The notes beneath the pieces were generated by a model. The model did no database searches, was not told where the DNA came from, and saw only the letters and a program-made list of their open reading frames with translations. A stretch of DNA of 63,697 nucleotides, the filler included, from Collodictyon triciliatum (taxonomy: Eukaryota), in assembly GCA_043381765.1 (NCBI GenBank). It is 7 parts of 7 records of this genome, joined end to end, with 100 filler letters (N's around TTAATTAATTAA, not from the genome) between each part and the next. Parts side by side here need not be neighbours in the genome. Positions count along the whole stretch, not along the records: positions 1 to 9,527 come from JBHJMP010002973.1; 6 more parts are not named here. One strand, 5' to 3'. The translations under genes were made by a program, and so were the position numbers. This document shows, in pieces, positions 3,901-8,005 of this stretch. How positions within the stretch are numbered: the stretch's first letter is position 1; each line of letters starts with the position of its first letter.

Positions 3901-6900
3901 AGCTGAATATCCTTTTCACAAATGATATTTGCTGAAATTTCAGACACACAATAGGACTCTGGATTTTCATTCCAAAGTGCACCAATGTTTTGACAATCGT
4001 CCATGAGGGAAGGAAATGCGATACACTCTTTGTTAAAATTGATACCAAGTCCAAAGTGATCAAAAATATCGACGATCGCGTTGAACACGTGCCCATCTAG
4101 GTCAATTATCAAGGTCTTTTTGACCTTTTCTTTCAAATTGGCCAACAAAATAATACCATTTGAATCCTTCCCAATACCTTTGAAGCTGAAAACACAGCAG
4201 AAAATTCTGATTAGAAAATGAGGATCCAAAAAAACAATCGATTTTACATTTTCAAAGGATGAATACCAAACAATCGAGCCAAGGTCATGCAAAAATTTGA
4301 GAGCACTTTCGCACTGTGTCTTATCCATATTCAAGACTTTTTTTGAGAATGCATATATCGACTCTACACTTTCATATTTCACCAATTTGCCTTTCGATTC
4401 CAGATAATCTTTCAAGCGGTGGTATGTCTTGGGAACCTCCTTGTTAACACTCTCCAAACCCATTATTCCCTCGTATATAGCTTTCTTCAATTCAGCTATT
4501 CCATAACCATTTCTATTACTGACTCTTAACTTGGTATTCATGAAAGTGTGGTAGTTGTTTTCTCTCTTTATCCGCTCGATTTCCATTTTCATTTCCTCTT
4601 TGTAAATTTCCACTTCACAGTCTCGATGGGTTCCAACGATAATGATTTTTGAACCAGGCGCAAAGTTATCCAACATTTCAACCCATCGAGTGATATTGTT
4701 CTTTTCTTTGCCTTGATCTAACCGGTAAAGAATAAGAACAAGGGCGCCGGATGATAGAAAAAAAGGATGTGTGACTTGAAATTCTTCTTGCCCGCCAAAG
4801 TCCCAAACTCTGATGGATAGCTTTGTTTTCAAAGGACCACCCATAGATAATTCATCAATGCTCACATTAGCTATTCCGTCCGTTCTTAGTCTCCCACCAT
4901 CAGTGGTGTCCAAAAAAATCCAGCCTTTTTGGGCAATCGACTCTGTGATTGTTGTCTTTCCAGCACCAGCACCTCCTAGAATAAGAATTCTGCCGCTCTT
5001 CCATTTCGCTTTTCCTTGCATCGAGGCGGTGAGAAAATCAAACACACTTCCTGAGCCATTCCTCAAGACATTTTCAGGAATGTTACGTATCGGATTTCCA
5101 TGAATCATGAGTCCGTTTCGCAGGAATGGCAGGGAGGTCAAAAACGGTTGTATAACTTCAATCTTTTTTATGTATTCATGAGTAAAATATCAGACACTGT
5201 ATTTTGCTTGAAAATTGATGCTTACTGTCCGGCTCAGTGAATATATTAACATTAAAAAAAAAAAGATATGAATGCAAACTTACCTTATTATTGGATATAT
5301 CAAATGATTTAAGAGTGGTGATTTTCACCACGGTCTCCGAGAGATGTACAATCTTTAAAATATGTTAATAATCATTAATATTTGATAACAGTTTCACAAA
5401 ATATTCATCTAATTAGCTAATACAAAATTGCTGGATAAATCCAATATCTCGATGGCAGGCAATTCGCAGATAGAAGCAGGAATTTTTCTAAACTGTAAAT
5501 TGAATAGTATGATTATGAAAGTATTTCTATAATGTACTCATATTTTTCTTAAAATACTCTATTATGGCTGCCATTGAATTCATCCAATTTTGTTAGGGCA
5601 GAGAATCTCTCGGGTAAGGATGACATCTATTTGTTTACATGAACAAGCTTTCAGAAATTGACACCCATTGAAGTGTGATTGCCAATATGTAGTAAGTGTT
5701 TGAATATCTTGAATGTGTGAAATATGTCAAAGACCTATTGTAATCAGACATTCTACGTATCTTTATTTCGTTTATCAGATTGTTGTGCATAAAATGACTA
5801 CGGATTTACATACCTGATTATATGATACATTCAATTTCTCCATGAAGTTCATCCTGCCTATGTAGGCTGGTATTTGTTTAAGCTTTGAGCAGTTTGTTTT
5901 AGTATACAATACCTTCACTTTTCCTTTGACAAAATAAAATAGTATATATATAGATAAAATTTAGAGGGTAACCTTGTTGTAGCTTATATCAAAAATTCTC
6001 AGCATTAAGAGGAGCACGATTCTCTCGGGTAAATCGAATATCTATATAGTATAAGAAGGACCACATTATATGTGACTGCTATTATTCCTTAAAATAAATA
6101 GACCTTAATGACGATTCTTTAACCAGAATTTCATTTTTATGATAATATGTCCATTCCATAGATATTTATTTTGTAAATAATTACTTGGTTGTTAGAAATA
6201 TTGAGTAATTCGATTGAGGTCATTGAACAAAGATGCTTTGGAAATTCAGACAGCTATCCATTCAATTTTTAATAGGTTTGATTATAATAATCAATAATGC
6301 ATGGATGAGTCAATACTCTGTTGTGGCTGACGTTAAGTGATACCAGATTACTCAAGGCTGTAATATTATCGGGAATACTCGATATCTATCGATATTTTCA
6401 GTAATTATTTCTCAGCTGGTTCATGTTCATTACTTGGAGGAAAATTGGCAAGCTTTTACCTGGTTGTTGGACATGTTCAATTTTTTCAATGAGTGCAAAG
6501 TATACAACGCCACTGGTACTGTGTAAAACTACAAAGTTTCAATTATTTTTTAGCCAAAACTAATTATTCCTTTTCAAAGGAGGCATTTTCTTATTTTCAA
6601 TACATTGTTGTGGCTGGCATTAAATATATTCAAATTGATTAATGCAGAGGCGCTCTTGGGTATGTCAGATATCTGAGTATCGATTTTGGTTACAACATAA
6701 CTTTTTTTTATCAAAGTGTCAAGTACCCAGATGGTATTGGGTTTACATTTGAAGTATGAAAATATATAGATAATTATAATGAAATAGAATAGAATGAAAA
6801 ATAAAAAAAAATTGAAAAATTAACATTTGTTTCTCTAACCTGATTGTGTGATATATTCAAGTTTCCTATCGCAACCATGCTCAGTAGTACATCAGGGTAG

Positions 6901-8005
6901 GAATCAAACTAAGGGTTATTTCAAAATAAGTTTAATTGACAGAACATGCTATACATTACATGAAAATACTATGATTATGAAAAGTAAAGTAATCACATAA
7001 GGGCTCACCTTATTCTTACTTATATCGATATGTGTTATATTTGAAAGGCTAGATAATGTTTGAGGTAAATAGCTCAAATTTAACTTGATCAAGTCCAAAG
7101 ACCGAAATAACATTTGAGTTTCAGTAGGTTTCCATCCTGGTAAGACCAGTTCTTCCTGAATAAAATTATTCAATTTATAGTTCTCGGTAACTTTGTGCAC
7201 GTAATGTGTATTGCATGATCATCTGCTCTGAAAAAAATATTCAAATGTCTTCTATAGAACAATGAAAGACATAATTAATCTAATCACTGGGTTATAGAGT
7301 TGTAATGATCGAAGGACATGCGACACGGTAACCCCTCTATTCGAGTCTGTCGAGTTGTTCCAGCATGGGAGGTTCGAGAGTCCAAGAGGAGCAAACTTGA
7401 CAGAAAGGGCTCCAAAATATTCGATATGGAGTACATAGAGCTGCTTCAGGGTAGTAATTTGCTGTGGGAGCATATAAATCTGATATATTTATCCTTATTA
7501 TTGGGAAGAATGGTCTTTTAAGAGGAAGTCTCTTGAAATGAATTAAGTGCTATGATGATTGCTTATCTTTACTTCAATTTGGTCAAAAGACTATTATACG
7601 AATGAGAATCGTGCATACTGGGTTCTCAAATATGCTGAAGTATGTAAGACGAGTCAGCCCGGATACTTCACCCGGCAATGATGAAATGTTGTTACACTGA
7701 AGCTCCAATCTTTCAAGCCGTACCAACTCCGATATTACAGAGGGCAAAATCGATAGTTGGTTGTATTGAATCTCTAGTCTCATTAGGTTGATAAGCCGCG
7801 ACATATGGGATGGCAAGGACGAGATCCGATTGTTGTCGAGCCATAGTATGGCTAAGCGGCTGAAGCGTGGCACTGACTCCGGCACAGCACTGAGATCTTT
7901 GGAAATGAGGTCTAACTGAGTGCAGAAGCGGATGTCTCCCTCGCGGGGTTCAAAAGGGGGCGATAGTCTCTCTAAGTCAACCAAGGGCGGGGCAGACTGA
8001 AACAT
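919..8005 (-). CDS. Roco family protein: LRR-Roc GTPase-COR-protein kinase-SAM-like x2-LRR (multi-exon)
   Basis: ORF 3372-5141 has Roc motifs GGAGAGKTT, WDFGGQ and GTHRD, followed by COR-like LKFLHDLGSIVWY. ORF 1391-3505 has kinase motifs SKGTFGRVY, VVVK, YHEDLKGDNI, DFG and GTSNWQAPE. Ten 69-bp GT-AG LRR exons lie at 5284-6908, with LRR-cap exons at ~7009-7157 and 7619-8005. LRR exons after the kinase lie at 1294-1362 and 1091-1159, then a last exon IVKFPVSITSLMNTRLAHSSAD* with stop at 919. Linkage of 7300-8005 to the rest of the gene is inferred. Confidence 0.88.
3226..3327 (+). repeat. (AAT)n microsatellite in the COR-kinase intron
   Basis: Pure AAT run. It explains the spurious poly-Y and poly-N in the ORF track. 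Confidence 0.95.

Follow-up and report, generated by a model that had tools for sequence, protein, structure and literature searches.

Ten single-repeat exons in an LRRK-like Roco kinase gene of Collodictyon triciliatum: a probable relic of ancient in-frame duplication of a two-exon cassette

In this study, we describe two Roco genes in a stretch of DNA from the protist Collodictyon triciliatum (assembly GCA_043381765.1), hereafter the window, which comprises 63,697 nucleotides (nt), filler included, and consists of seven pieces joined by N44-TTAATTAATTAA-N44 spacers; the pieces measure about 9.5 kb, the last being cut at 6.0 kb. Piece 1 (from JBHJMP010002973.1) holds all of the first gene, gene A, in which ten consecutive exons each encode a single leucine-rich repeat (LRR), and piece 7 holds a second member of the same family, paralog B. 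Since the window is made of seven pieces, physical linkage of gene A and paralog B is not to be assumed. Several pieces terminate in microsatellites; piece 7 itself opens in one, at position 57684, and the 5' part of paralog B is absent from it. The coordinates of all features are collected in Table 1.

Gene A has 18 exons (E1 to E18) and a coding sequence of 5052 nt that specifies 1683 amino acids (aa) with no internal stop, every intron being of the GT-AG type; the exon model was built from the sequence and verified by in-script splicing. It is an LRRK-like LRR-ROC-COR-kinase Roco protein with an unusual LRR tail, the full order of parts being LRR, ROC GTPase, COR, protein kinase and short C-terminal LRR. 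Pfam, run on unspliced single-exon open reading frames (ORFs), returned Roc at 1e-16, COR-A at 7.4e-10, Pkinase at 9.6e-31 and LRR_8 at 1.9e-11 to 1.9e-12, the last of these values coming from E1. That Roc (residues 67-190, 61.7 bits, cut-off 27) and COR-A (residues 253-359, 39.3 bits, cut-off 35.3) lie on one 605-aa single-exon ORF confirms the label of Roco gene given to this locus in an initial annotation of the window. ROC is invariably followed by COR in Roco proteins (PMC4104024), and COR directly follows ROC in gene A. The spliced model contains the GTP-binding site motifs GGAGAGKT, DFGG and THRD, as a matter of motif presence only, and C-terminal to COR it carries a kinase with the catalytic residues expected of an LRRK-type protein (VVVK, HEDLKGDN, DFG and APE).

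The order LRR, ROC, COR and kinase is that of LRRK-type Roco kinases, such as human LRRK1 and LRRK2 and those of Dictyostelium. In gene A the motif THxD replaces NKxD, as it does in LRRK2. LRRK2 additionally bears N-terminal ankyrin and armadillo repeats and a C-terminal WD40 domain. Unlike LRRK-type proteins, gene A ends in LRRs, and in the ORFs scanned Pfam matched no ankyrin, armadillo or WD40 family, whether at E <= 0.01 or at 0.001. A further difference lies in the kinase, which is non-RD: the catalytic loop reads HEDLKGDN in gene A and HEDLKADN in paralog B, that of LRRK2 being HRD. No N-terminal hydrophobic stretch was found in gene A, the sole KD-19 window above 1.6 falling within COR, and on this basis the protein is predicted to be cytosolic. 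Two minor features of this part of the gene deserve mention. A segment of about 230 residues that links the kinase to the C-terminal LRRs gave no Pfam match at E <= 0.001, yet is conserved between gene A and paralog B; it forms an undescribed region of this Roco subfamily. The intron between COR and kinase of gene A is filled with a long (ATT)n microsatellite that reads in frame as a poly-Tyr run, so that the two large ORFs seem to overlap.

The ten array exons, E4 to E13, are each exactly 69 nt long, preceded by AG, followed by GT and open in frame 0, with stops in both other frames in eight of the ten; the nine introns between them measure 63-187 nt. The 23-aa units that they encode conform to the consensus [ILFM]-x-x-[ILVY]-P-x-x-[ILAF]-x-x-[LMI]-x-x-[LIM]-x-x-[LF]-[ND]-[IVAMGL]-S-x-N-x. 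Ser20 and Asn22 are present in every repeat and Pro5 in nine, position 18 is Asn in seven and Asp in three, and positions 15, 16, 21 and 23 are variable. The initial annotation had placed the ten exons at these very coordinates, three of them marked as approximate, and had given each one LRR cut at the same point after S-x-N-x; all ten positions proved exact, and the cut is the same in all ten exons. As it also pointed out, any exon can be skipped, duplicated or swapped without a frameshift, because 69 = 3 x 23 and phase is 0 on both sides.

An exon model over-read from short open frames, or a pseudogene, could give a misleading picture of such a locus, and the model of gene A does rest on DNA sequence. 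Submitted to Pfam singly, only 3 of 15 exons gave LRR matches, all below the cut-offs, as is expected for pieces of 23 aa. We nevertheless regard an artefact or dead gene as very improbable. A blind scan of both strands of the window for AG-[69 nt open]-GT frames carrying the LRR tail motif returned 14 matches, whereas 100 first-order Markov simulations gave a mean of 0.12 and a maximum of 1. The 18-exon reading frame is uninterrupted, the catalytic motifs are intact, and the array exons have a GC content of 36.8% compared with 18-34% in the introns between them. In addition, an end-to-end alignment pairs the spliced model with a transcript-derived relative, the 1896-aa transcriptome protein P0001 (residues 8-908, 29% identity, E 4e-97, 179 gap columns), with exon 1 alone being 39.7% identical to the N-terminus of that protein. 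The irregular motif of E2, 'LGLSNLPCW...LRSLQLYN', has a similar counterpart three times in the LRR domain of P0001, and may be a conserved non-canonical insert in this Roco subfamily. A small additional exon between E2 and E3 (about 7227-7190) was considered and rejected, as no GT donor there preserves the frame.

The introns of gene A share one register. Sixteen of the 17 are in phase 0, and all 16 lie directly after the Asn-x that ends an LRR strand motif; these sites include not only the array but also the ends of E1 (FENP), E2 (LYNP), E3 (SKNK), the kinase exon (HSNR) and two C-terminal LRR exons. The three LRR exons of paralog B follow the same register. The single exception in gene A, in phase 1, separates COR from kinase, and its near counterpart in paralog B is likewise in phase 1. 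Intron density is uneven, with 13 introns in 1416 coding nt of the N-terminal LRR part versus one in 3429 nt of ROC-COR-kinase. One way to account for a common register is that the repeats came first and acquired their introns later, through independent gains at a protosplice-like site (Asn-Gln/Lys/Arg followed by a hydrophobic codon), in which case the layout would be uninformative on exon duplication. E1 encodes about four regular 23-aa LRRs that lack introns at the equivalent sites (NNR/ISS, YNQ/LSI, CNN/ISS), so repeats without introns do exist in gene A, and in six of the ten array exons the GT is preceded by CAG or AAG, a typical protosplice context. Yet later gain would require at least 16 independent events at the same codon boundary and in the same phase, in two types of repeat, N- and C-terminally, and in gene A and paralog B alike, while the 3429 nt of ROC-COR-kinase gained only one intron. 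Inheritance of the intron with each duplicated unit is far more parsimonious, and we judge the later-gain alternative improbable.

The repeats are old, and they are of two alternating types. Pairwise identity among the ten array exons averages 45% at the nt level, with a maximum of 67% (6604-6672 versus 5558-5626), and 29% at the aa level, with a maximum of 52%. Among exons that share parity, identity is 50.9% (n=20 pairs), compared with 40.8% among those of opposite parity (n=25), a difference reached in 160 of 20,000 permutations; at third codon positions the corresponding values are 39% and 30%, which is close to saturation. We built a maximum-likelihood (ML) tree of 16 units, namely the ten exons, the last 69 nt of E3, the two C-terminal exons of gene A (AC1 and AC2) and three exons of paralog B (B1 to B3). 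A single branch of this tree, with support of 78/82, parts the odd from the even type, and the split recurs in 96% of 200 bootstrap trees; when labels were shuffled, 5-6 of 500 shuffles scored as low as the odd/even split. End branches have a median length of 0.78 changes per site. Tandem Repeats Finder reported no array across the exon region. Direct repeats there reach at most 38 nt, the longer ones lying mostly at conserved exon ends and donors, and three short AT-rich direct matches of 14-18 nt are intronic.

Paralog B also bears on the order of the repeats. The initial annotation had ascribed the same layout to it; this holds for three LRR exons, the 5' part of the gene lying outside the piece. 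In the tree, the even type takes in B1, B3 and AC1 and the odd type B2 and AC2, so that the two C-terminal exons of gene A are one of each. Since B1 and B3 are even and B2 is odd, the order even-odd-even before ROC is common to gene A and paralog B. The two genes are 51% identical in aa sequence across ROC-COR and 47% across the kinase region, and no exon of paralog B exceeds 48% aa identity to any exon of gene A. When the gene A model was compared with the rest of the window by tblastn, paralog B alone was matched. The LRR exons after the kinase of gene A (919-1361, minus strand) share the 69-nt, phase-0 format of the array; in paralog B, a six-frame scan with a hidden Markov model (HMM) found no LRR unit after the kinase.

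We consider it probable that the array is a relic of the tandem, frame-preserving duplication of a two-exon cassette in a cytosolic LRRK-like Roco kinase. The array exons form the central part of the N-terminal LRR domain of a protein of this type whose reading frame is intact, and the duplicated unit would have been a cassette of exon plus intron, two LRR exons long, with one 'odd' and one 'even' member. Since each repeat is followed, directly after its Asn-x, by a phase-0 intron, unequal crossing-over within introns could lengthen or shorten the array by whole repeats and leave the frame intact. Growth of the array by this route would be ancient, predating the split of A and B, the copies having since diverged almost to saturation, and the order of the repeats would not have been reshuffled after that split. 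The exons are presumably joined today by constitutive splicing to yield a solenoid of about 20 repeats, which, by analogy with other Roco kinases, could act as a protein-binding or regulatory arm of the GTPase-kinase core.

Several points weigh against this interpretation. Constitutive splicing of the array is an assumption. The roughly four regular LRRs of E1 that lack introns oblige the cassette model to invoke intron loss or a separate origin for that exon, and the E2 donor at 7288 is the least certain boundary of the gene model. Support for the odd/even branch is moderate and comes from only 69 columns, and the family comparison consists of two members, one of which, paralog B, is truncated at its 5' end. 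Lastly, most of the 179 gap columns in the alignment with P0001 fall in the ten-exon region, which marks the middle of the LRR domain as evolutionarily plastic over long spans of time.

A different proposal was made in the initial annotation, which suggested that this organism may have a combinatorial system of LRR receptors. An active system of this kind would splice its LRR exons alternatively, or exchange them among many paralogs, and would signal through the GTPase-kinase core. We searched for signs of such activity with an HMM made from 15 LRR units and run over six frames of the window. The known units scored 24.8-38.2 bits and everything else at most 8.7 bits, the best of the remainder being an LRR within E1; no spare, intronic, inactivated or antisense LRR exon was found in either gene, and a regular-expression scan of the window agreed. 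Brown algae do have such exons (PMC3341825).

The format of the array is certainly compatible with combinatorial use, as exons of 69 nt in phase 0 on both sides leave any subset in frame. Two of the seven pieces hold a family member, which is suggestive of an expansion provided that the pieces sample the genome independently, and the LRR units at the three ROC-proximal positions are less conserved between the paralogs (26-35% aa identity) than ROC-COR or the kinase region. Positions 18 and 20, which we take to lie on the concave face, are on the other hand fixed as N/D and S in the ten repeats and in B1-B3 alike. The kinase is non-RD in both genes, and non-RD kinases are reportedly linked to pattern-recognition receptors. 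Furthermore, Ectocarpus ROCO genes with exon arrays of this sort have several splice variants (PMC11378527). Free shuffling is nonetheless difficult to reconcile with the strict alternation of odd and even types and with an identical pre-ROC order in the two paralogs. Moreover, no pair of exons within or between genes exceeds 67% nt identity, and the introns contain only short, AT-rich inverted repeats of no more than 22 nt, providing no candidate for a selector structure. The window thus offered no positive support for a combinatorial receptor system, as the exons are old, their types alternate, spare exons were not found and the paralogs are 47-51% identical; repeat age, order and conservation mildly contradict it, and an active system is in our view unlikely.

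P0001 is the best database match to ROC-COR, at 35% identity; being known from a transcriptome, it is uninformative on introns. Its precomputed Pfam list contains LRR, Roc and COR families and no kinase family. Named Roco matches, which include mollusc LRRK-like proteins and a Planoprotostelium Roco kinase, reach at most 28% identity. A kinase was detectable by BLASTP in 4 of 31 database relatives, none of the four having post-kinase LRR units. Scanning metagenomes with an alignment of the A and B ROC-COR regions yielded 79 loci, at 22-29% identity throughout, a distance too great for exon structures to be compared.

One-repeat-per-exon arrays have precedents, of which that of the brown algae is the closest in gene content. 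Brown-algal ROCO genes encode each LRR in a single 72-nt exon, in the register GxxPxxLxxxxxLxxLxLxxNxLx, and exon shuffling has been proposed to provide immune diversity there (PMC3341825); the initial annotation was thus right to cite Ectocarpus as a precedent. The same source and PMC11378527 describe LRR-ROC-COR genes with LRR exons in phase 2, documented splice variants, spare intronic and antisense LRR exons, and highly recombined, near-identical paralogs. Gene A resembles the genes with type I LRR exons of Ectocarpus and Saccharina in being a Roco gene with one repeat per exon, a fixed exon length and a symmetric phase. Unlike them, its exons are of 69 nt in phase 0 as opposed to 72 nt in phase 2, and the cut lies between N-x and the following L, some two codons from the brown-algal one. 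Gene A also has a kinase and C-terminal LRRs, in contrast to the kinase-less brown-algal proteins, and the spare exons and near-identical recombining paralogs of those genomes were not found in the two loci examined here. The parallel with Ectocarpus is therefore valid as an analogy only, and is looser than the initial annotation implied. Because length, phase and register differ, the gene A array is probably independent of the brown-algal exon family, and a variant of the same kind of architecture.

A second precedent is Tetrahymena, in which tens of thousands of LRR exons are exactly 90 bp long, with more than 96% of their introns in phase 2, and in which arrays are interpreted as the result of clonal origin and successive exon duplication (PMC6564038). 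The likeness to gene A is that of tandem LRR exons of one exact length and phase in a protist, some of the Tetrahymena genes being fused to kinase domains according to the same text. The differences are again in format (69 nt in phase 0 versus 90 bp in phase 2), in age and number (two old, diverged genes versus thousands of young ones), and in the presence of ROC-COR in gene A, none being described for Tetrahymena in the passages of PMC6564038 consulted. In animals, the gonadotropin (LH) receptor has similar-sized exons that each encode one LRR, with phase-2 introns and growth by duplication of a prototype exon, as recounted in PMC11378527; it shares with gene A the correspondence of exon and repeat, and differs in its phase-2 introns, in that its repeats form the extracellular domain of a G protein-coupled receptor, and in belonging to an unrelated family.

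Fixed-length LRR exon arrays have thus been known, and in brown algae and Tetrahymena they have been read as engines of receptor diversity. A further array, with exons of 69 nt in phase 0 and yet another cut point, would demonstrate a recurrent origin of the one-repeat-per-exon design. We found no description of 69-bp LRR exon arrays in the literature searched, outside of which most subscription journals lie, and this is the first such array that we have seen in a kinase-bearing LRRK-like Roco gene. One could go further and suppose that the 69-nt, phase-0 cassettes form an independently evolved system in a large Roco-kinase family, in which exon skipping or unequal crossing-over tunes the surface by which an intracellular receptor-kinase with non-RD output achieves recognition. 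We hold this to be a doubtful scenario; if true, it would constitute a third, convergent LRR-exon-based candidate innate immune repertoire, beside those of brown algae and Tetrahymena. Because the copies here are ancient and orderly, the case of gene A cautions that the layout by itself is no proof of an active combinatorial system. Duplication of a two-exon cassette, our preferred account, instead draws its interest from the two-type alternation kept in both paralogs, which provides a concrete model of how a repeat domain could grow, and from the prospect of a simple LRRK-like protein whose LRR length is alterable exon by exon.

Table 1. Coordinates of the features described, counted along the whole window.
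Feature	Position	Strand	Details
Gene A, E1	8005-7619	minus	ATG at 8005-8003; 129 aa; about 4.5 LRRs without internal intron; ends F-E-N-P then GT, in the array register
Gene A, E2	7479-7288	minus	192 nt; phase 0 on both sides; irregular LRR segment with 'LGLSNLPCW'
Gene A, E3	7155-7009	minus	147 nt; phase 0 on both sides; last 23 aa a regular LRR ending D-I-S-K-N-K then GT
Gene A, E4-E13 (array)	6840-6908, 6604-6672, 6460-6528, 6317-6385, 6185-6253, 5973-6041, 5814-5882, 5558-5626, 5424-5492, 5284-5352	minus	ten exons of 69 nt, phase 0; one 23-aa LRR each
Gene A, E14	5162-3416	minus	1747 nt; last LRR and cap, ROC GTPase with its three motifs, COR; phase 1 end
Gene A, COR/kinase intron	3199-3415	minus	(ATT)n microsatellite
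Gene A, E15	3198-1517	minus	1682 nt; kinase with its four motifs, about 230 aa without Pfam match, first C-terminal LRR ending L-H-S-N-R then GT
Gene A, E16	1361-1293	minus	C-terminal LRR; 69 nt; phase 0
Gene A, E17	1159-1091	minus	C-terminal LRR; 69 nt; phase 0
Gene A, E18	987-919	minus	last coding exon; 69 nt; 22 codons and stop
Gene A, catalytic loop	2500-2560	minus	HEDLKGDN
Gene A, post-kinase region	1517-2200	minus	
Paralog B, LRR exons B1-B3	57817-57885, 58023-58091, 58211-58279	plus	three exons of 69 nt, phase 0
Paralog B, ROC-COR exon	58385-60122	plus	phase 1 end
Paralog B, kinase exon	60254-62034	plus	stop included
Paralog B, catalytic loop	about 60800	plus	HEDLKADN
Paralog B, post-kinase region	61300-61900	plus	
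Blind-scan matches (14)	E4-E13 as above; 1293-1361; B1-B3 as above	minus; minus; plus	AG-[69 nt open]-GT with LRR tail motif
Spacers	9528-9627, 19146-19245, 28765-28864, 38363-38462, 47974-48073, 57584-57683		N-run pairs of 44, every ~9.6 kb
Piece 1	1-9527		holds all of gene A
Piece 2	9628-19145		
Piece 3	19246-28764		
Piece 4	28865-38362		
Piece 5	38463-47973		
Piece 6	48074-57583		internal 546-N gap at 56488-57033
Piece 7	57684-63697		holds paralog B, 5' end cut by piece start
uS3 gene	49464-50213	minus	intron-less
Deltex-like gene	53639-56487	plus	enters the 546-N gap
Genes of other pieces	36016-37098; 33661-34155; 44305-44943; 43268-44179; 18056-18700	minus; plus; minus; minus; minus	

Other genes accompany the two Roco genes in the window, and base composition is strongly heterogeneous within pieces. 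The gene for ribosomal protein uS3 lies in a stretch of about 51% GC, compared with about 35% around the Roco genes; its best database match is a transcriptome protein at 85% identity, and it is 67-80% identical to its counterparts in plants, algae, fungi and animals. The Deltex-like gene carries WWE (5.6e-07), RING (3.1e-13) and Deltex C-terminal (3.6e-19) domains on successive exons. The loci listed for the other pieces comprise a ubiquitin-plus-RING protein, an adenylate/guanylate cyclase catalytic domain, an SPX domain followed by a RING exon, and a double MYND-finger protein.

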